DNA from: an uncultured Stakelama sp.
GTDB lineage: Bacteria > Pseudomonadota > Alphaproteobacteria > Sphingomonadales > Sphingomonadaceae
Direction: 5' to 3'
Length of the DNA stretch: 64,000 nt
NCBI GenBank assembly: GCA_964390515.1
Contig: CAYMIU010000005.1
Coordinates: forward strand, 13,912 to 77,911
Shown: positions 6,698-16,853 of the stretch, piece after piece
How positions within the stretch are numbered: position 1 is the first letter of the stretch
How the letters are laid out: each line of letters starts with the position of its first letter
Made by a program: the position numbers and the translations under genes
Notes under the pieces: model-generated
The model's input: the letters and a program-made list of their open reading frames with translations, nothing else
Told to the model about the DNA's origin: nothing
Database searches by the model: none

Positions 6698-7432
6698 ACC
6701 ACCCGAAGATCGGCACCAGGGGTGAGCGGATTGAACGATGCGCACCCTGCACGCTGGATAAAGTCGTGGTTTGTTCCGTTGCTCCCGTTTGACTTTTGGC
6801 GCCGATCATCGCGGCGCCCTCGACATCCATCCAGCTCGCGATTGATGGCCCGAACGACAAGCTCGAGCCCGTCTCTCTGGGCAGCGCAAATCGCTCCCGA
6901 CGGCTCGGTGACAATAATCGTCAGCCTCAAAGCTCGGCGTACGTTCGTCCACCACAGCGCCGTGCCGGTTGGCATGTCGACCATCTACTCTGTCATGCGC
7001 GGCAATGAGACGTCTACCCGCATCTTTACGATCCTGCCAAAGGATGTTGACCAAAATCAAACCTATCGGCGGGGCGATGCCGTTCATGCGTCGCCTAACT
7101 TCGGGGGGTATCGCGCTCCACGCCGGCGCTCTGCCTGGCTAGCTCAGGCCAGTTGCCGGTTGACGCGGATATGCGCTGGATTTTCAGCAGTCGGCTCAGC
7201 GACGAAGCCCATCTGCTGCTCAAAAACGATTGCGGAACGGTTCTGCCGTTCGTCGAGCGATGCCATGCTCGATCTACCTCACTGGCGTAGCGTCTCTACC
7301 AACATTCGAGCAAGGACCAGCGCCCCCCACCCCCCGCTTTTATGGTAGGCGCGGATGTTGATGGCGACGTCACGATCGCGCGTGGTGACATCACCTGCGA
7401 GCATTGCCGGAGCGACCAGCCCGCCCGCATAG

Positions 7433-8101
7433 CTAACATTCGGTCTTGGCTGACGCACTCGACACTGTTCCTGACATAGCCCGATGGATTGCCGTCACCC
7501 GTTTGACGTGAGCGATGCTGCACCCGGCGAGTTCGGCCGTCTTCGCGATGCTCATACCCGCCTCTCGCAAGCCTACGATGCGGCGGTGGTGGGCTAGATC
7601 GGGCTTGCGGCCGGTGTAGCGCCCTGCCCTCTTGGCAATCTCAATGCCTTCACGCTGCCTCTCGCGCCGGGTCTCGTAGTCGTCGCGTGCGGTTTGGAGT
7701 GCCACGCGCAGCAGCATATCCTGCACCGCTTCCAGTACGATGCGCGCAACGCCCGCGTTGTCTGCCACGAGTTCGGACAGGTCCACAATGCCAGGCACTG
7801 CCAGTCGCGCTCCCCTGCCCCGGATCGCCGCCACTAGCAGTTCGGCTTCCGGCAGCGGTAAACGGCTGATCCGGTCGATCTTCTCAGCGATCACAACTTC
7901 GCCCGGCTGCAGGTCATCTACCATTCGCAGCAGCTCCGGCCGGTCTGGCCGAGCGCCAGACGCCTTCTCACGGTAAACCGCCGCGACGTAGAACCCGGCC
8001 GCGCGCGCGCCTGCGACGATACTCTCCTGCCGCGTCAGATCCTGCTCATCCGTGCTCACCCGCAGATACACCCGCGCCGCTCGTATCCCGCTGCCTGCCA
8101 C
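7433..8101 (-). CDS. Serine recombinase (resolvase family)
   Basis: ARVYLRVSTDEQ catalytic Ser motif, EKASG..RPEL, DRISR, C-terminal HTH. Confidence 0.92.
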   Translation of the reverse strand: MAGSGIRAARVYLRVSTDEQDLTRQESIVAGARAAGFYVAAVYREKASGARPDRPELLRMVDDLQPGEVVIAEKIDRISRLPLPEAELLVAAIRGRGARLAVPGIVDLSELVADNAGVARIVLEAVQDMLLRVALQTARDDYETRRERQREGIEIAKRAGRYTGRKPDLAHHRRIVGLREAGMSIAKTAELAGCSIAHVKRVTAIHRAMSGTVSSASAKTEC

Positions 8102-8120
8102 GTCCTCATCCTCCCGTCTG

Positions 8121-8146
8121 GCTCAATCGGGTACACCCATTTGAGC
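8121..8146. repeat. Inverted repeat, candidate res subsite
   Basis: GCTCAATCGGGT-AC-ACCCATTTGAGC directly upstream of the resolvase. TCACCAAGC direct repeats at 8201 and 8253, and a further inverted repeat at 8259-8286. Confidence 0.45.
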
Positions 8147-8349
8147 CAGTGCTGCGGCAGCCGGCTCTGAATAGCAAGCACCGATCCTGTCGAGCCTAGC
8201 TCACCAAGCCAGGCCTAAGTAGCTAATGGGCACGGACATGACCGACGACTGATCACCAAGCACGTAGGAGTGCCCTCCTTCGTGCTATGCATCAGCGGCG
8301 TCATGCGGTACATTTTGGTGATTGGGTCAGCCAAGCGAGTTCAGTGCAG

Positions 8350-8598
8350 ATGGAAGCACAGAGGGTCAAGATTGTGGACGGTGGTAAACTCGTGATCCCG
8401 GCGGCTATGCGCCGGGAGCTCGGGATCACCACGGGTGACACCGTTCTCGTCGATGTGGACGATGGCGAGTTGCGGGTACGATCAGTGCCTAGAGCGCTTG
8501 AACGTGCTCGCGCGATCCTGCGCAGGTATGTGCCCGAAGGCGTCGGCTTGGCTGACGAGCTGATTGCGGAGCGCCGGCGCGAGGCGGAGCGTGAGTAG
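8350..8598 (+). CDS. vapB: AbrB/MazE-type antitoxin (VapB-like)
   Basis: VKIVDGGKLVIPAAMRRELGITTGDTV swapped-hairpin motif; overlaps the PIN gene. Confidence 0.88.
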   Translation: MEAQRVKIVDGGKLVIPAAMRRELGITTGDTVLVDVDDGELRVRSVPRALERARAILRRYVPEGVGLADELIAERRREAERE

Positions 8599-8989
8599 CA
8601 AGGTCGTCCTCGACGCCTCCGCCCTGCTCTGCCTTCTGAACGACGAGCCCGGGGCGGGTCGGGTAGTGGACGTCCTTACCCGTTGCATCATCGGAACGAC
8701 CAACCTCGCCGAGGTCGTCTCCAAGCTTCGGGACCGAGGATTGCCGCTCGACGAAGTGCGTGAGGCGCTTGGCGGGCTACACCTCGACGTCCGGCCCCTC
8801 TCTCCTGCACAGGCACTGATAATAGGCGACCTCCGGCCGTCGACGAAGGCGCTCGGTTTATCTCTCGGCGACCGGGCGTGCCTTGCCTTGGCGATCGACC
8901 TTCAAGCGGACATGTTCACGACGGACGGCCCACTAGCGAGCGCCGATGTCGGCATTACCATCACCAATGTGCGGCCGCTTGCAGAGTAG
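8591..8989 (+). CDS. vapC: PIN-domain toxin (VapC)
   Basis: VVLDASALL..NLAEVV..GLSLGDRACLALA..TTD acidic PIN residues. Confidence 0.9.
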   Translation: MSSKVVLDASALLCLLNDEPGAGRVVDVLTRCIIGTTNLAEVVSKLRDRGLPLDEVREALGGLHLDVRPLSPAQALIIGDLRPSTKALGLSLGDRACLALAIDLQADMFTTDGPLASADVGITITNVRPLAE

Positions 8990-9037
8990 TCGCACATTCG
9001 TGCTTTTAGGTACGGCACTCTGCAGTCGGGGACTCCC

Positions 9038-10432
9038 ATGACTACCGCTCCGACACCGGTGCGCGACACCATTCTGATCACGCACGCCAATCCCGAGGAC
9101 AATCGCTTCTCCCGGTGGCTTGCCGGGCGCCTAACCACGGCCGGGTACAAGGTCTGGGTCGACGTTCGCGCGCTTCGGGGCGGCGACGATTTTTGGGACA
9201 AAATTGAGCACGTGCTGCGGCATGAGGCGATCAAGCAGATTGTTGTCGTTTCCGAGCACATCGGGAAGCAAGGCGTAAAGAAGGAACTCGCCCTCGGCGA
9301 CGTTATGCGTCGCAAGCTCGGCGACGCGGAGTTCATGATTCCGATCCGGATCGCCGACGTGGACTTCGGCGATTTCCCAACAGAGATCCTGCGGCAGAAC
9401 GCACACAATGCGTTCCCTAACTGGGCGGCCTGCCTTCAGCCCCTGTTCGAGACGCTCGACACCTCACGTGTGCCGAAGGTCGATCATCCGGACGCCGAAC
9501 AGCTTGCGATGATCGTCGCTGCCCAGGAGGATGGTCGGAAGCTGGTCACCCCAAATCCCGAGATGCTCTACAGTAACTGGTTCGAACTTCGGGCGAGACC
9601 TGACGTCTGGATACTGGAGGCGAAGGGAACGACTGCGCAGCTGGAAGCCTGGAGCCAGTTCACGCGTGTTCCCCATGTGTTGCACGAGGGAGGCGCCATC
9701 GCCTTTTGCGGACCCGATGCGATCGAACGTCTCGACGACAGCGCTCCGCCGTTAAAGGCGCGCGCCAGCTTGCCCTTCAACGGCGTGATAGACGGTACCT
9801 ATAGCCGGCACTTCGGTGAGCGCTCCAACGCACGGCGGATCGCTGTCAATCTGATGCGTCAGCATTGGGATCTGGCCATGCATCGTCTCGGGCTACTTCC
9901 TGTCGATTTCGCTTCGGGCGCCCGCGGCCGCTTCTTCCCCGACGGGCTGATCGACGGGAGAGTCAAGCTGACGCTGAGCGACGGACATCGGGTTGACCGG
10001 GTGCTGAGCGGCAAGTTCAAGGATCGGCGCTGGCACTTGTGCCTTGTCGCTCAACCAAAGCTCTGGCCGGATGCTCTTTTCCGGGTCCATGCCAATGTCG
10101 CGGTGACGACCGACGGCCGAACCCCGCTCCCGGGTGAACAGCTGCAGCGCATTCGATTGCGCCTCACGCGGTCTTGGTTCAACGACAAATGGCGCGATAT
10201 GCTGCTCGCCGCGATGGGGTGGCTTGCCGAAGGTGATGCGGCCCTAGACATTGCCGCGTCCGGTGAGCGCCTCGCGGTTGCTAGCCTACCAATGAGCTTC
10301 GAGTTCCCGGTCAGCTTCGCCGCGGAAGAGGACCGCCGAGCCGAGGAAGACGAGGGAGGCCAGATAACCCTGTCAGAGGACTTCGAAACGGCCTTCGACC
10401 GGGATGAGATGCCGGAGGAGGCCGACGCATGA
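9038..10432 (+). CDS. TIR-APAZ effector of a SPARTA system
   Basis: N-terminal TIR: ILITHANPEDNRFSRWLAGRL..GYKVWVD..DFWDKIE..GVKKELALG with the putative catalytic Glu. Followed by an APAZ-like region and an acidic C-tail; ATGA overlap with pAgo. Confidence 0.92.
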   Translation: MTTAPTPVRDTILITHANPEDNRFSRWLAGRLTTAGYKVWVDVRALRGGDDFWDKIEHVLRHEAIKQIVVVSEHIGKQGVKKELALGDVMRRKLGDAEFMIPIRIADVDFGDFPTEILRQNAHNAFPNWAACLQPLFETLDTSRVPKVDHPDAEQLAMIVAAQEDGRKLVTPNPEMLYSNWFELRARPDVWILEAKGTTAQLEAWSQFTRVPHVLHEGGAIAFCGPDAIERLDDSAPPLKARASLPFNGVIDGTYSRHFGERSNARRIAVNLMRQHWDLAMHRLGLLPVDFASGARGRFFPDGLIDGRVKLTLSDGHRVDRVLSGKFKDRRWHLCLVAQPKLWPDALFRVHANVAVTTDGRTPLPGEQLQRIRLRLTRSWFNDKWRDMLLAAMGWLAEGDAALDIAASGERLAVASLPMSFEFPVSFAAEEDRRAEEDEGGQITLSEDFETAFDRDEMPEEADA

Positions 10433-11964
10433 GCATCCTCACGCATCGCATCGCCGAACCTTTGCTCGAGTTCGGTCACGGGCAGCAGATGGAAGCGCCA
10501 AAAGATGGGCTCTTCCTCTTCGGGCCACTCGAGGGTCCCGATGGCCGCTCCCAGGTACGCCTGGGCGTCATCGGGACGGAGAGCGGTGTCGGCCTATCCC
10601 GCCGCTGGTTAGAGCGGATCAGCCTGCATATACCCGGCAAGGTCGATGCAAAGGGCAAGCCCGTCCTATGGGCACCCGCATGGCCAGGGTTCGAGGCCTG
10701 CTTCGGCATCGTACTGCCAACCCGCGGCATGGTCGAGCTAGCGCTCAAGAGCGGCGACATCGATCATTGCATCAAGAAGAACAATCGCGCCGACGCGGTC
10801 CGCTCCACGGTGCTGCTGTTCGCCGACGCGATACGCGCGCACATCCGCGCTGAGGAGCGCCGTCCCGACGTCTGGCTCGTTGTGGTTCCGGACGTCGTCT
10901 ATCGCTACGGACGTCCCCAAGTAGCACCACCGCCCAAAGACGAGCGCACTCCCTCCGACATCACGAGCTTTAAAGACGCCAAACGCTTCTTCCAGATGGG
11001 TGGTGACCTATTCCCAGACACGGTGCGGGATGCCGAGACCTACCTGTTCTCGAGCAATTTCCACCACCAGTTGAAAGCCGAGTTGCTGCAGGACGGCGTC
11101 GTCCTTCAACTGATCCTCGAAAGCACGTTGGTTGATCGCAACCTCAACATCGCCAACGACCGCCGGCTTGGCCTCCAGGACGAGGCCACGGTTGCATGGA
11201 ACTTCTGCACCACGCTCTACTTCAAGATGGACGCCAAGCCGTGGGCGCTGGCCCATGTCCGGCCTGGCGTGTGCTACGTCGGACTGGTGTTCAAGAACGA
11301 CGACACGCCTGCGGCAACGGGCGAGGCCTGTTGCGCCGCGCAGATGTTCCTCAACTCAGGCGACGGCCTTGTCTTCCGCGGCGCCCTCGGCCCTTGGTAT
11401 TCCGACGAGCGCAAAGAGTATCATCTGTCGAGGAGCGCGGCGGCGAATTTGATGACCTCGGTGGTCGAGGGCTATAAGCTCAAGCACGGCAAGCCACCTA
11501 ACCAGCTGTTCATTCATGGGCGGCACCGCTTTTCCGACGATGAGTGGGACGGCTTTTGCAGCGCAGTGCCCACTGAAACACAGCTGGTAGGCGTCAGGAT
11601 CAAGCAGCTCGATGATGTTCGGCTGTTCCGCCCCTCTGCGTCGACACCAGTCCTGCGCGGCACGGCTCTTACCGTGGGTGACTGGTCAGGTTACCTTTGG
11701 GCGCGGGGGTTCGTGCCTCGACTTGCAGGGTATCAAGGATTCGAGACACCCAAGCCGCTCACCGTCGACGTGACGCATGGCGAAGGCGACATCGTAGAGG
11801 TGCTCGGTGACATTCTTGCGCTCACCAAGGTCAACTACAACGCCTGCGATTTCGCTAGCGCCCTTCCCGTGACGCTCAAGTTCGCCGATCGGGTGGGTGA
11901 GATCCTGATGGCGTCGCCACATACCGTTATCGCACCGCCGCTGCCGTTCCGGCACTACATCTGA
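10429..11964 (+). CDS. ago: Short prokaryotic Argonaute (MID-PIWI, nuclease-dead)
   Basis: IAEPLLEFG start, NFHHQLKAELL MID pocket, LYFK..KPW, VCYVGLVFK (no catalytic Asp), DILALTKVNYN..PVTLKFAD..PFRHYI terminus. 511 aa with no N/PAZ domains. Confidence 0.93.
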   Translation: MSILTHRIAEPLLEFGHGQQMEAPKDGLFLFGPLEGPDGRSQVRLGVIGTESGVGLSRRWLERISLHIPGKVDAKGKPVLWAPAWPGFEACFGIVLPTRGMVELALKSGDIDHCIKKNNRADAVRSTVLLFADAIRAHIRAEERRPDVWLVVVPDVVYRYGRPQVAPPPKDERTPSDITSFKDAKRFFQMGGDLFPDTVRDAETYLFSSNFHHQLKAELLQDGVVLQLILESTLVDRNLNIANDRRLGLQDEATVAWNFCTTLYFKMDAKPWALAHVRPGVCYVGLVFKNDDTPAATGEACCAAQMFLNSGDGLVFRGALGPWYSDERKEYHLSRSAAANLMTSVVEGYKLKHGKPPNQLFIHGRHRFSDDEWDGFCSAVPTETQLVGVRIKQLDDVRLFRPSASTPVLRGTALTVGDWSGYLWARGFVPRLAGYQGFETPKPLTVDVTHGEGDIVEVLGDILALTKVNYNACDFASALPVTLKFADRVGEILMASPHTVIAPPLPFRHYI

Positions 11965-12058
11965 TCCCATGAGCGCCGACCGAGGCTGAGGGAGATCGAG
12001 CGCGAGGCGGAGACGCTGCGGTCCACCAATTTAGGTACATATCCGCTGTTTCGGGTGC

Positions 12059-13216
12059 GTGCCGCCGGGTGGATGCTGTCCACCATTTCAGGGAAACCTA
12101 CAGGCAGATTCGCGGAAAGAAGTTTCCGAAATCCGGCAACTCGTTTCCGAACTGGCCCGCCTCGTGCAAGACCCGACCGACCCCGAATCGCTGCCGACCT
12201 CGCGCGCGCTCGTCATCGTCGAGCCGGCGGAGCTGGTGCCGGTCGCGACCCATCTGGCGCTACGGCCGACGCCGACGCTGCCCGGGATCGTCGACCTCGA
12301 GACCGAGCGCGCCGACGCCTATGCGCGCGCCGCGCGCGCCGACAACACGCACCGGGCCTATGCCGCAGACTGGACGATCTTCACGACCTGGTGCGCGGAG
12401 CGTGGTGAACGTCCGCTGCCGGCGTCGGCCGAGCTGGTGCGGCGCTTCGTTGCTTGGGAGGCCGACCGCGGCCGCTCGCCGGCGACGATCGAGCGCCGCG
12501 TTGCGGCGATCGGTCATTATCACCGCGCCGAAAACTTTGTCGCGCCGACCGCGCTGCCCGATGCCGGCAGACTGCGCGAGACGATGGCAGGAATCCGCAA
12601 CAGCCGCGGCGGTAAGAAGACGCGCAAGCGCGCGGCCGACGCCGCCATCCTCGAAGCGATGCTCGGCACCTTTCCCGGTGAGGGCCTGCGCGCGCTGCGC
12701 GATCGGGCGGTGCTGGCAATTGGGATGGCGGCGGCGCTCCGCCGCTCCGAGCTGGTAGCGCTCACCGTCGATGACATCGAGCTCGTGCCCGAGGGCCTGC
12801 GCATCATCATCGGGCGGTCGAAGACCGACCAGGGGCAGGAGGGCGCGGAAGTGGCGGTGCTTGAAGGGTCGCGGCTGCGGCCCAAGGCGCATCTGCTCGC
12901 GTGGATGGGGGCGGCCGGGCATGACGGCGGTCCGTTGTTCCGACGACTAACCCGAGGCGATGAGCTGACAGACGACGGGATGAGCGATCGGGCGGTTGCG
13001 CGGCTGGTCCAGGCCGCGGCGCGCAAGGCCGGGCTGGACGAGCGCCAGTTCGCCGGCCACTCGCTACGTGCTGGCTTCCTGACCGAGAGCGCTGCGCGAG
13101 GCGCGACGATCTTCAAGATGCAGGAGGTCAGCCGTCACAAGACGGTGCAGATCCTGTCAGAGTACGTGCGCTCGGCCGAGCGGTTTAGGCATCACGCCGG
13201 TGCGGGCTTCCTATAG
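12059..13216 (+). CDS. Cre-like tyrosine recombinase (true start probably later, near 12164)
   Basis: ADNTHRAYAADW N-domain; RDRA..ALRRSEL, RSKTDQ, GHSLRAG, RHK, EY catalytic set. Confidence 0.92.
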   Translation: MPPGGCCPPFQGNLQADSRKEVSEIRQLVSELARLVQDPTDPESLPTSRALVIVEPAELVPVATHLALRPTPTLPGIVDLETERADAYARAARADNTHRAYAADWTIFTTWCAERGERPLPASAELVRRFVAWEADRGRSPATIERRVAAIGHYHRAENFVAPTALPDAGRLRETMAGIRNSRGGKKTRKRAADAAILEAMLGTFPGEGLRALRDRAVLAIGMAAALRRSELVALTVDDIELVPEGLRIIIGRSKTDQGQEGAEVAVLEGSRLRPKAHLLAWMGAAGHDGGPLFRRLTRGDELTDDGMSDRAVARLVQAAARKAGLDERQFAGHSLRAGFLTESAARGATIFKMQEVSRHKTVQILSEYVRSAERFRHHAGAGFL

Positions 13217-13382
13217 ATGAACCGTCGACCACCGCCACAGTACCGAGCCAGTGCAGCCCTAGTAGTGCATGCAAATGGGCGTGGGCATCGGGCTGAACCG
13301 CGTGTCGAGCGAGCGGCACCTGATCGACATCGACGCGCGTCGCGCGTCTGTTCCGCCCGAGCGCCTTACCCATCGAAGCCGG

Positions 13383-13901
13383 TCAGGCAGTCCCGGGATG
13401 GCTGAGCGACGCCGGGGTGAGCATCCTTATCGACAACTCCCCATGCGTGCCGAGCTGCTCGAGGAGCGCAATGCTATGTTCCTCCACGCCATCGGGATCC
13501 TCGAACACCTCCATCGTGTAGCAACCCCGCGCCATGTCGCAGCCGGGCGTGTCCCTGGCAGCGCGTGAGTATGGCTCCGGCCAGCGGCAGACGAGTACCC
13601 AAGGCCACCCCTCTTCCGGCGGCTCGTAGCGGGAGATCAGGACGTTGTCGGAGACCAATGCCGACGGGCGTCTATCGAGGAGGTCAGGCGCGACCGCAGC
13701 CGAGCGTGGTTCATCGAGAAAGCGGTCCAGCTCGGCGCGTTCCTCGTCGGTCTCAAGGATAATTGCATAGTAGCGGCCGAGTGCCAGCCTCTCCCCGCAA
13801 TTTCGGATCGGCATGTCGATCAACATCACGCTCGGCGCGGCGATCATGGGCGAGGCGTAGAACATGCGCTCGCGCGCGAGGGTTTGCGAGAGGCGGTACA
13901 T
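13383..13901 (-). CDS. Hypothetical protein
   Basis: 172-aa ORF with globular-like composition, unlike the Arg/Pro-rich shadow ORFs; no family recognised. Confidence 0.55.
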   Translation of the reverse strand: MYRLSQTLARERMFYASPMIAAPSVMLIDMPIRNCGERLALGRYYAIILETDEERAELDRFLDEPRSAAVAPDLLDRRPSALVSDNVLISRYEPPEEGWPWVLVCRWPEPYSRAARDTPGCDMARGCYTMEVFEDPDGVEEHSIALLEQLGTHGELSIRMLTPASLSHPGTA

Positions 13902-13957
13902 GGTGCTGATCGGCCGTTCCCAGTTTACCTGTGCGATCGGGACGATATGGTCGCACG

Positions 13958-14116
13958 ATGACCGAGAGCGAGCAACTCTCCCCGGAGCAATGGCGCGAGC
14001 GGATTCAATCGCTTGGCGACCGTGAGGTGGTCGCGCTGTACGAGCGGGAGGAAGGTCGCGGGCCGATTACCGACGTCGCCGCCAGCGAGATGGAGCCACG
14101 CAACCTAGATTACTAA
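13958..14116 (+). CDS. Small hypothetical protein
   Basis: MTESEQLSPEQWRERIQSLGD..., followed by a small hairpin near 14114-14132. Confidence 0.4.
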   Translation: MTESEQLSPEQWRERIQSLGDREVVALYEREEGRGPITDVAASEMEPRNLDY

Positions 14117-16241: not shown

Positions 16242-16853
16242 TCACAACCGACTGGCACGCCAGAGCGCCAACACTTTGCGCACATAAGCCGGCGTCTCGG
16301 CATTTGACGGTACGCCGCCGGCGCGCGCAACCGCCCCCGGTCCAGCATTATAGGCGGCGAGCGCCAGTGTGACCGATCCGAACCGATCGAGCATCAGGCG
16401 CAAGAAGCGCGCACCGCCGTCGACATTTGAACGCGGGTCAAACGGATTAAGGACGCCGAGTGCCCGAGCGGTGGCGGGCATCAGCTGGGCCAGGCCGATC
16501 GCGCCGGCGCTGCTGATGACGCGAGGTTGGTACGCCGACTCGGTCGCGACCAGAGCGTCGAGTAATCCCTCGGGTAGTGCATGGCGTATTTCCGCCGCGC
16601 GGATGAAGGCGAGGAATGCGTCACGACCCGGCAGGCGCGCGCTCGCGGGGACTGGCGTGGCCGTTGCCGACTTGTCGTTTGGCGGGAGCACCGCCGGAGT
16701 ATCCGGCGCACGGCTCCGATGCTCCACCAGCTGGAACACGGTCGACGCAAACGACTGATGGTCCGCAGCAGCGTCTTGCGATTGTGCCGCCGCCGGAACC
16801 GCCCAGCCGAGCGCCAGCGTCGAGATGGTGAGGAAGAGTGGTCGGATCATCAT
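16242..16853 (-). CDS. Lytic transglycosylase (SLT family)
   Basis: Signal peptide; LVATES (catalytic Glu), GAIGLAQLMP, AAYNAGPG. Confidence 0.92.
   Translation of the reverse strand: MMIRPLFLTISTLALGWAVPAAAQSQDAAADHQSFASTVFQLVEHRSRAPDTPAVLPPNDKSATATPVPASARLPGRDAFLAFIRAAEIRHALPEGLLDALVATESAYQPRVISSAGAIGLAQLMPATARALGVLNPFDPRSNVDGGARFLRLMLDRFGSVTLALAAYNAGPGAVARAGGVPSNAETPAYVRKVLALWRASRL

Follow-up and report, generated by a model that had tools for sequence, protein, structure and literature searches.

A SPARTA defence operon as probable cargo of a resolvase-vapBC stability module in Sphingomonadaceae

Introduction

Why should an Argonaute-based defence operon stand 48 nucleotides (nt) behind a toxin-antitoxin (TA) pair, and does this position couple the two? 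The question is raised by a 64,000-nt stretch of DNA from an uncultured Stakelama sp. (contig CAYMIU010000005.1, positions 13,912 to 77,911; the window, whose own numbering is used below), in which a serine resolvase gene, a vapBC pair and a short prokaryotic Argonaute/TIR-APAZ (SPARTA) operon lie side by side, with a Cre-like tyrosine recombinase gene to their right. SPARTA systems consist of a short prokaryotic Argonaute (pAgo) and a TIR-APAZ protein, belong to clade S2A and include MapSPARTA and CrtSPARTA (Koopal et al. 2022, PMC9097488). An initial annotation of the window had taken the whole for a defence cassette bracketed by two recombinases, and had suggested several ways in which VapBC might serve SPARTA.

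Our analysis favours a simple explanation, based on comparison of sequences, to which we give a probability of roughly 0.6. SPARTA would be the cargo of a stability module that resembles the par region of plasmid RK2 or the res-TA core of Tn3-family elements. The serine resolvase would be transcribed leftwards from a res-like control region, vapB-vapC and then TIR-APAZ-ago would be transcribed rightwards, and a short repeat-bearing tail would close the module. The backbone formed by the resolvase, the res region, vapBC and the tail would serve as a replicon-stability unit combining multimer resolution with post-segregational killing, so that, through the TA pair, cells that lose the carrier replicon would incur a cost. 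SPARTA (9018-12020), lodged in the tail of this backbone, would be transcribed by read-through from the vapBC promoter, and its dose would follow VapB/VapBC autoregulation. A biochemical role of VapC is unsupported, and we postulate no hand-off of this sort between it and SPARTA. What is new is the arrangement; the parts are known, and they do not make up a new kind of system.

A conserved module across Sphingomonadaceae

The gene for TIR-APAZ, the effector subunit of SPARTA (464 aa, 9038-10432, + strand), matches the PADLOC profile Aga_TIR-PNTD1-PNTD2 over residues 8-438 (2.8e-145) as well as Pfam TIR_2, and its product is related to the SPARTA TIR-APAZ chains of PDB entries 8qlo and 8fex (4.6e-49). 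Its catalytic-type TIR glutamate, E83, is invariant in an alignment of 11 sequences and aligns with the KE of solved TIR-APAZ; it is probably equivalent to E77 of MapTIR, an assignment that rests on the published mutant (PMC9097488). The gene for the 511-aa short pAgo (10429-11964, + strand; PADLOC pAgo_I, 3.5e-192, full length) adjoins it in the same orientation through a 4-nt ATGA overlap, which is the arrangement by which SPARTA is recognised. Upstream, vapB (8350-8598, + strand) encodes an 82-aa antitoxin of the AbrB/MazE type (PF04014, 4.7e-08) and vapC (8591-8989, + strand, GTG start) a 132-aa PIN-domain toxin (PF01850, 3.1e-08). With the vapB stop at 8596-8598 and the vapC GTG at 8591 the two genes overlap by 8 nt, and a small DNA-binding antitoxin gene 5′ of and overlapping a PIN toxin gene is the usual layout of VapBC. 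The ATG at 8350 is the conserved vapB start, conservation among 20 loci setting in just 5′ of it, from GTGCA. VapC carries the acidic residues D8, E41, D93 and D111, which were placed by eye on the usual VapC pattern and not on a structure, and it has no solved-structure relative at E<=0.001. From the vapC stop at 8989 to the TIR-APAZ ATG at 9038 there are 48 nt. On these matches both SPARTA and VapBC are intact, and the domain profiles together with our reading of the sequence bear out the initial annotation in all six of its gene calls, in its gaps of -8, 48 and -4 nt, and in the co-orientation and tight spacing of the five genes.

A scan for TIR-APAZ in one genome per species gave 18 loci, 13 of which belong to Sphingomonas or Sphingobium and encode a TIR-APAZ about 96-97% identical to that of the window (99% over a short stretch in L018). 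In all 13 of these cassette loci vapB-vapC lies directly 5′ with the same spacing as in the window, and the resolvase is present in most. Among the carriers of the cassette are the type strains Sphingomonas trueperi DSM 7225 (L001) and S. abaci DSM 15867 (L005). The block that they share runs from about 7480 to 12102/12103, at 84-92% nucleotide identity, and consists of the resolvase, the res-like repeats, vapBC, SPARTA and a 138-nt tail (11965-12102, + strand), at whose terminal motif the cross-locus homology ends; on the left, homology between loci fades at about 7473-7491, within the C-terminal tail of the resolvase. The block was found in about 24 Sphingomonadaceae loci, its copies lying in 13 genome loci, 4 complete plasmids, 5 metagenome contigs and a second place in the window's own genome, and its flanks represent at least eight unrelated contexts. 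Because the block is conserved in about 24 loci, the arrangement is not a product of chance, and the alignments indicate that the segment from about 7480 to 12102 is one discrete module that has spread horizontally.

The coding sequences point in the same direction. VapB is 97.6-98.8% identical in 12 relatives with a ratio of nonsynonymous to synonymous substitution rates (dN/dS) of 0.03-0.04, VapC is 92-94% identical in relatives (dN/dS 0.08-0.09), and Ago is 98-99% identical in the cassette relatives (dN/dS 0.02-0.03). Across vapB, vapC, TIR-APAZ and ago, dN/dS is 0.02-0.09, which shows strong purifying selection on all four genes, and the synonymous rate dS is of the same order (0.21-0.51). 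Since vapC and SPARTA also yield the same clusters of loci, the similar dS and low dN/dS argue that the four genes have travelled together and that all of them have been maintained.

The second copy in the window's own genome is a full cassette on contig C17 at about 31.9-36.6 kb (locus L068, 7944-12570). Its proteins are 95% (resolvase), 93% (VapC), 97% (TIR-APAZ) and 99% (Ago) identical to those of the window. The tyrosine recombinase that comes after it is another one, 59% identical to that in the window. One cell thus has two SPARTA systems on two presumably mobile replicons.

Backbones without SPARTA

A search for VapC in 401 Sphingomonadaceae genomes, together with one plasmid match, showed that resolvase-vapBC modules lacking SPARTA exist, with a VapC 86-93% identical to that of the window (79% in L067, a contig-end fragment). 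In two of them, L064 and L065, the vapC stop is followed by the same 28-nt tail as in the window, then by 40 unrelated nt and then by the same repeat-bearing tail, which ends in the identical motif TTTCAGGGAAACCTACA. The 3,003 nt at 9018-12020, which hold SPARTA with 20 nt before and 56 nt after it, are thus present in one form of the backbone and absent from the other, and the ends of the backbone are the same in both. The plasmid locus L019 departs from the window at the same left point and has a DUF5131 gene in place of SPARTA; L066 is likewise without SPARTA. Relatives of the window had been expected to carry swapped cargo between the same two recombinases. Cargo downstream of the same resolvase-vapBC backbone does vary, being SPARTA, a 40-nt empty slot (L064, L065) or DUF5131 (L019); a shared pair of flanking recombinases was not seen.

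In a tree of the short vapBC sequences, the SPARTA-less modules are nested among SPARTA-bearing ones. The nesting favours loss of SPARTA, and homologous exchange could give the same tree.

Beyond the right terminus of these two SPARTA-less modules (L065, 5111-8008; L064, 1-3041, - strand) we observed a gene for a 965-aa MmeI-like restriction-modification fusion and one for a cyclase-AAA-TPR (STAND-like) protein; the site beside the module seems to gather defence-type genes.

The control region

The left arm of the backbone is the gene for the serine resolvase (222 aa, GTG start, 7433-8101, - strand; PF00239, 1.6e-18, and HTH_7, 3.9e-06). Its nearest solved relatives are a Gin/Hin-type invertase, Tn552 Bin3 and Tn3 resolvase, and it is 69-95% identical in relatives. 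Between it and vapB lies a divergent control region (8102-8349), which we delimited by alignment of 20 loci. Here the inverted repeat GGCTCAA (8120-8126)/TTGAGCC (8141-8147), that is GGCTCAA-N14-TTGAGCC, flanks a core GGTACACC (8130-8137), which in most relatives is the palindrome GGTATACC; a third copy of GGCTC stands at 8163-8167, and TAGCT repeats also occur in the region. The candidate res repeats that had been noted to the left of vapBC are thus present, and they are kept in 20 loci across two sequence types that are otherwise just 55-58% identical. This conservation suggests that 8102-8349 includes a res region, and the promoters of the resolvase and of vapBC presumably lie in it as well.

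Closer to vapB, 65-90 nt 5′ of the gene, is a palindrome (8259-8286) with 12-nt arms, AGCACGTAGGAG tgcc CTCCTTCGTGCT. The other sequence type has a different inverted repeat, GTGCA-N12-TGCAC, in its place, so that the symmetry is kept and the sequence changed, though VapB is 98% identical.

In L015, which has no resolvase, homology to the window begins at the core; it is the only locus with a break there, and a single case proves nothing. A breakpoint in L007 was considered as a res crossover and was rejected, as an IS3-family element abuts the res region at that point: its OrfA and OrfB (L007, 5865-7084) stand at the usual start of the resolvase gene, and the repeats, vapBC and SPARTA are intact.

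Transcription of the SPARTA genes

The spacer between vapC and TIR-APAZ (8990-9037, + strand) was resolved into two parts by the junction alignments. Its first 28 nt, TCGCACATTCGTGCTTTTAGGTACGGCA (8990-9017), also follow the vapC stop in the SPARTA-less modules, and its last 20 nt, CTCTGCAGTCGGGGACTCCC (9018-9037), in which GGGGA would be the ribosome-binding site, are found only with SPARTA. A scan of 7000-14000 gave no terminator-like or sigma-70-like site in the 48-nt gap, nor in either intergenic region.

The closest SPARTA operons outside the cassette lineage differ at this point. Six sister loci in six contexts (L011, 2250-2316; L013, L014, L074, L075 and L076; 78-87% identical) have two upstream boxes in common, GGATAAGC near -62 and GCTTCTCAG at -37, which are roughly inverted copies of each other and may be the native operator or promoter of that SPARTA clade. 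In the cassette the distal box is missing, and vapC coding sequence stands at -62. Since the first 28 nt of the spacer also occur in modules without SPARTA and the distal box is gone, SPARTA's own upstream DNA amounts to 20-48 nt, and at least half of the element present in its relatives has been lost. The simplest consequence of so short an upstream region is read-through from the vapBC promoter, and a single transcription unit for vapBC and SPARTA appears the likeliest arrangement.

Several points weigh against SPARTA as a read-through cargo of this backbone. Co-transcription is something that we infer from the layout of the genes. The promoter consensus used in the scan was that of E. coli sigma-70, which may miss alphaproteobacterial promoters, and the negative result accordingly says little; a promoter may lie inside vapC or in the 48-nt spacer. 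Part of the native control element could also survive in the cassette, where GCTTTTAGG at -36 is a possible homologue of the sister loci's -37 box. The vapBC tree and the weak similarities at the sides of the junctions are compatible both with insertion of SPARTA into the backbone and with its deletion from it in L064 and L065. Finally, as regards the mode of movement of the block, neither a transposase nor a terminal inverted repeat was found.

The strongest competing explanation draws on some of these points: SPARTA would have its own promoter in the 3′ end of vapC or in the spacer, and vapBC would be a mere stability neighbour with no regulatory coupling. It is helped by the position of GCTTTTAGG, which is as far from the ATG as the sister box GCTTCTCAG, and by CGGCACTC, which is shared with L014, so that a remnant of native control may persist. 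The two modules can come apart, as the SPARTA-less derivatives show, and defence genes often stand beside unrelated genes. Against it are the missing distal box at -62, the shortness of the gap with its lack of a promoter-like match, and the occurrence of the first 28 nt after the vapC stop in modules without SPARTA. We consider this explanation unlikely, and prefer transcription of SPARTA from the vapBC promoter.

The end of vapC, TGCAGAGT (stop codon included), can pair with ACTCTGCA, just past the start of the SPARTA-specific DNA (8981-9029). The predicted stem has a minimum free energy of -24.7 kcal/mol and a z-score of -2.3; it lacks a U-tract, and in the L003 type only part of the pairing is preserved. 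Two structures were rejected as terminators, namely a mini-hairpin GCAC-attc-GTGC with TTTT after vapC, the stem of which has only 4 bp, and the longer predicted stem of the gap, for its want of a U-tract and a z-score of just -2.3. A sigma-54 reading of GGTACGGCACTCTGCA, made by eye, was dropped because its spacing is one off.

The right end of the module

The tail contains direct repeats of GTCCACCAWTTNAGG at 12021 and 12078, an inverted repeat GGTGGA/TCCACC at 12068-12084, and the terminal motif TTTCAGGGAAACCTACA at 12086-12102 (also written TTTCAGGRAAACCTACA), so that the block ends in ...GGGAAACCTACA. The tail repeats exceed chance, with 3 matches where 0.28 are expected. The terminal motif occurs exactly once per cassette locus, and in every locus homology stops after it.

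The open reading frame (ORF) of the tyrosine recombinase (12059-13216, + strand; PF00589 and PF02899) begins within this tail and has Cre as its best solved relative (1e-10). Since its first 71 codons lack conservation and run across the conserved terminal motif, translation probably starts downstream of 12103. A recombinase is found to the right of the block in 9 of the 13 loci, on unrelated DNA and with only 46-59% identity between loci, and in the other 4 none is present within about 6 kb. The tyrosine recombinase is on this comparison a neighbour outside the conserved block and is not part of the unit. The bracketing of the cassette by two recombinases consequently has to be abandoned: the resolvase side is conserved, but the opposite side is not.

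These features might nevertheless indicate an integron-like platform, in which the Cre-like recombinase uses the tail repeats (GTCCACCAWTTNAGG, terminal CCTACA) to capture or exchange cargo such as SPARTA, or else integrates an element of its own. The sharp break of homology at 12102 in every locus, the tail repeats above chance expectation, and the presence, in 9 of 13 loci, of a tyrosine recombinase gene at a distance of 0.1-1.4 kb on the right, even though its DNA is not conserved, are in keeping with such a platform. However, the same terminus is found without a nearby recombinase in four SPARTA-bearing loci as well as in the SPARTA-less L064 and L065, the cargo has no matching flanking sites, the SPARTA unit of sister loci ends with the ago stop codon, and the recombinases are only 46-59% identical. 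An integron-like platform is therefore very unlikely in our estimation.

A copy of GTCCACCAWTTNAGG with two mismatches lies at 16340 (16340-16354), beyond the recombinase, orphan ORFs, a HIRAN gene and an S24 repressor. It could be the far end of an insert borne by the recombinase, or could be due to chance.

The block was also considered as a Tn3 transposon. No Tn3 transposase is encoded on the window contig (C5) or on C17, PF01526 matching just on C30, C103, C134 and C135 of the genome, and there are no terminal inverted repeats, as the right-end motif occurs once in the 64 kb and has no inverted copy at up to three mismatches. The lack of a transposase on the contig and of an inverted terminal repeat ruled this out.

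VapBC and SPARTA outside the cassette lineage

If VapBC were a partner of SPARTA in general, it should recur beside other SPARTA operons, and the initial annotation had proposed a survey of SPARTA homologues for an upstream vapBC. With a VapC profile built from 30 sphingomonad homologues we screened every ORF in 98 SPARTA loci, drawn from genomes, plasmids and metagenomes, and obtained matches only in 5 metagenome loci, all with a TIR-APAZ at least 96% identical to that of the window. Outside the cassette lineage, about 110 SPARTA loci, among them relatives at 78-87% identity, lack such a VapC within about 4 kb. The nearest relatives without vapBC are L011, L013 and L014 (81-86% TIR-APAZ identity), L074-L076 (78-87%), and L016 and L017 (51%), and their DNA homology to the window begins only at the TIR-APAZ start. 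In 13 annotated plasmid SPARTA loci of rhizobia, roseobacters and others, vapBC is never directly upstream (0/13), the place being taken by helicases, TraG, restriction genes or nothing. Upstream of the metagenome SPARTA loci, 38 co-oriented ORFs form a defence-island mix: STAND NTPase, WYL regulators, methylase and specificity subunits, a type III restriction enzyme, DruA, M78 peptidases, a reverse transcriptase-protease, DUF3644, Shedu, Mrr, NERD and a relaxase. A PIN domain was found in none of the 38. We also found no paper that describes a VapBC-SPARTA pairing. The fusion of vapBC to SPARTA thus arose once, in Sphingomonadaceae only, with no general partnership behind it. Two findings had been named in advance as speaking against coupling, a promoter or terminator between vapC and TIR-APAZ and the absence of vapBC from SPARTA homologues elsewhere; the gap holds no site resembling either, and the co-occurrence fails outside the one cassette lineage.

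These results bear on the idea that VapBC and SPARTA form a three-component system, in which VapB and VapC would sense stress and release SPARTA expression, or in which VapC, a metal-dependent PIN RNase, would make 5′-phosphorylated guides or act as a second effector. VapC, as a PIN RNase, would leave products with 5′ phosphates, and to our knowledge the origin of the small guide RNAs of SPARTA is still not known. The linkage of four genes under purifying selection in about 24 loci counts in favour of such a system, but an addiction module would show purifying selection on vapBC in any case. The backbone also occurs without SPARTA, upstream TA pairs of any kind are missing from relatives at 78-87% identity, and such a VapC is absent from the scanned SPARTA loci (about 98) outside the cassette lineage. 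Moreover, published SPARTA is active in E. coli from its two genes, with no VapC, and the APAZ protein is the sole conserved neighbour of short pAgos (PMC9097488); the suggestion that VapC serves as guide-generating RNase or second effector finds no support here. A three-component system is accordingly highly improbable, and so is its fullest form, in which VapBC is a working third component whose autoregulation sets, and whose antitoxin decay releases, SPARTA expression, with free VapC perhaps supplying guide RNAs.

Other genes do stand in a comparable position elsewhere, and have been counted in favour of a three-component system. On plasmid unnamed3 of Indioceanicola profundi (NZ_CP030129.1; L023, 2004-6441), abiEi-abiEii, a type IV TA pair unrelated to vapBC, is directly upstream of a distant SPARTA (about 31% identical), and the abiEii stop shares 4 nt with the TIR-APAZ start. 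In this case a different TA family has been fused to SPARTA independently. WYL-domain proteins of 310-326 aa overlap the TIR-APAZ start by 4 nt in three metagenome loci (L094, 3024-4004; L103, 3024-4004; L129, 3066-3998), and are candidate dedicated SPARTA regulators. Upstream control genes thus recur, and these cases keep alive the wider idea of TA or regulator genes upstream of SPARTA.

At L074 (2204-3817) a reverse transcriptase-trypsin-like protease fusion, a retron-like defence gene, lies 183 nt 5′ of a SPARTA 87% identical to that of the window.

Comparison with known systems

The SPARTA operon of the window agrees with known SPARTA in its overlapping two-gene layout of TIR-APAZ and short pAgo, its strong profile and structure matches, its conserved TIR glutamate and its location on plasmid-like DNA. 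It differs in standing 48 nt behind vapBC without the upstream element of its nearest relatives.

The backbone has a close parallel in the par region of RK2/RP4, where the parCBA resolvase operon is divergent from the parDE TA pair across a shared res/promoter region. In both cases a serine resolvase and a type II TA pair diverge from one intergenic region with res-like repeats and join resolution to killing. In contrast to RK2/RP4, the TA pair here is AbrB/PIN in place of ParD/ParE, parB and parC have no counterparts, and a defence operon follows the toxin gene.

A second parallel is offered by Tn3-family modules, in which TA pairs, including the PIN-AbrB pair of TnPsy42, adjoin res site I, point away from tnpR and share the orientation of the following gene, and in which passenger genes vary among closely related modules (Lima-Mendez et al. 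2020, PMC7157771). The block shares with them a tnpR-type serine resolvase, a res-like region and a TA pair alongside. Unlike them, it has no Tn3 transposase on the window contig and no terminal inverted repeats, and SPARTA occupies the position of tnpA. Read-through from the TA pair into the downstream gene has been proposed for the Tn3-family modules (PMC7157771), and this model is a precedent for read-through from vapBC into SPARTA.

An addiction element physically joined to a defence system is also known from CreTA, the RNA toxin-antitoxin pairs that safeguard CRISPR-Cas; these depend on Cascade, so that loss of the defence genes is itself toxic. In contrast, SPARTA can be lost while vapBC stays, as in L064 and L065, which argues that the TA pair guards the replicon and not SPARTA itself.

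Conclusions

SPARTA is usually described as a self-contained two-gene system. Here it is joined to a plasmid stability module, apparently without its full upstream region, and the joined unit has since spread through sphingomonad plasmids and conjugative elements. Our knowledge of how SPARTA works is unchanged by this. If read-through is confirmed, the module would provide a natural example of toxin-antitoxin autoregulation extended to an Argonaute that acts by abortive infection, and would show plasmids carrying an anti-plasmid weapon along with their own maintenance genes. The empty and filled backbones form a natural pair in which the cost and benefit of SPARTA to its carrier may be compared.

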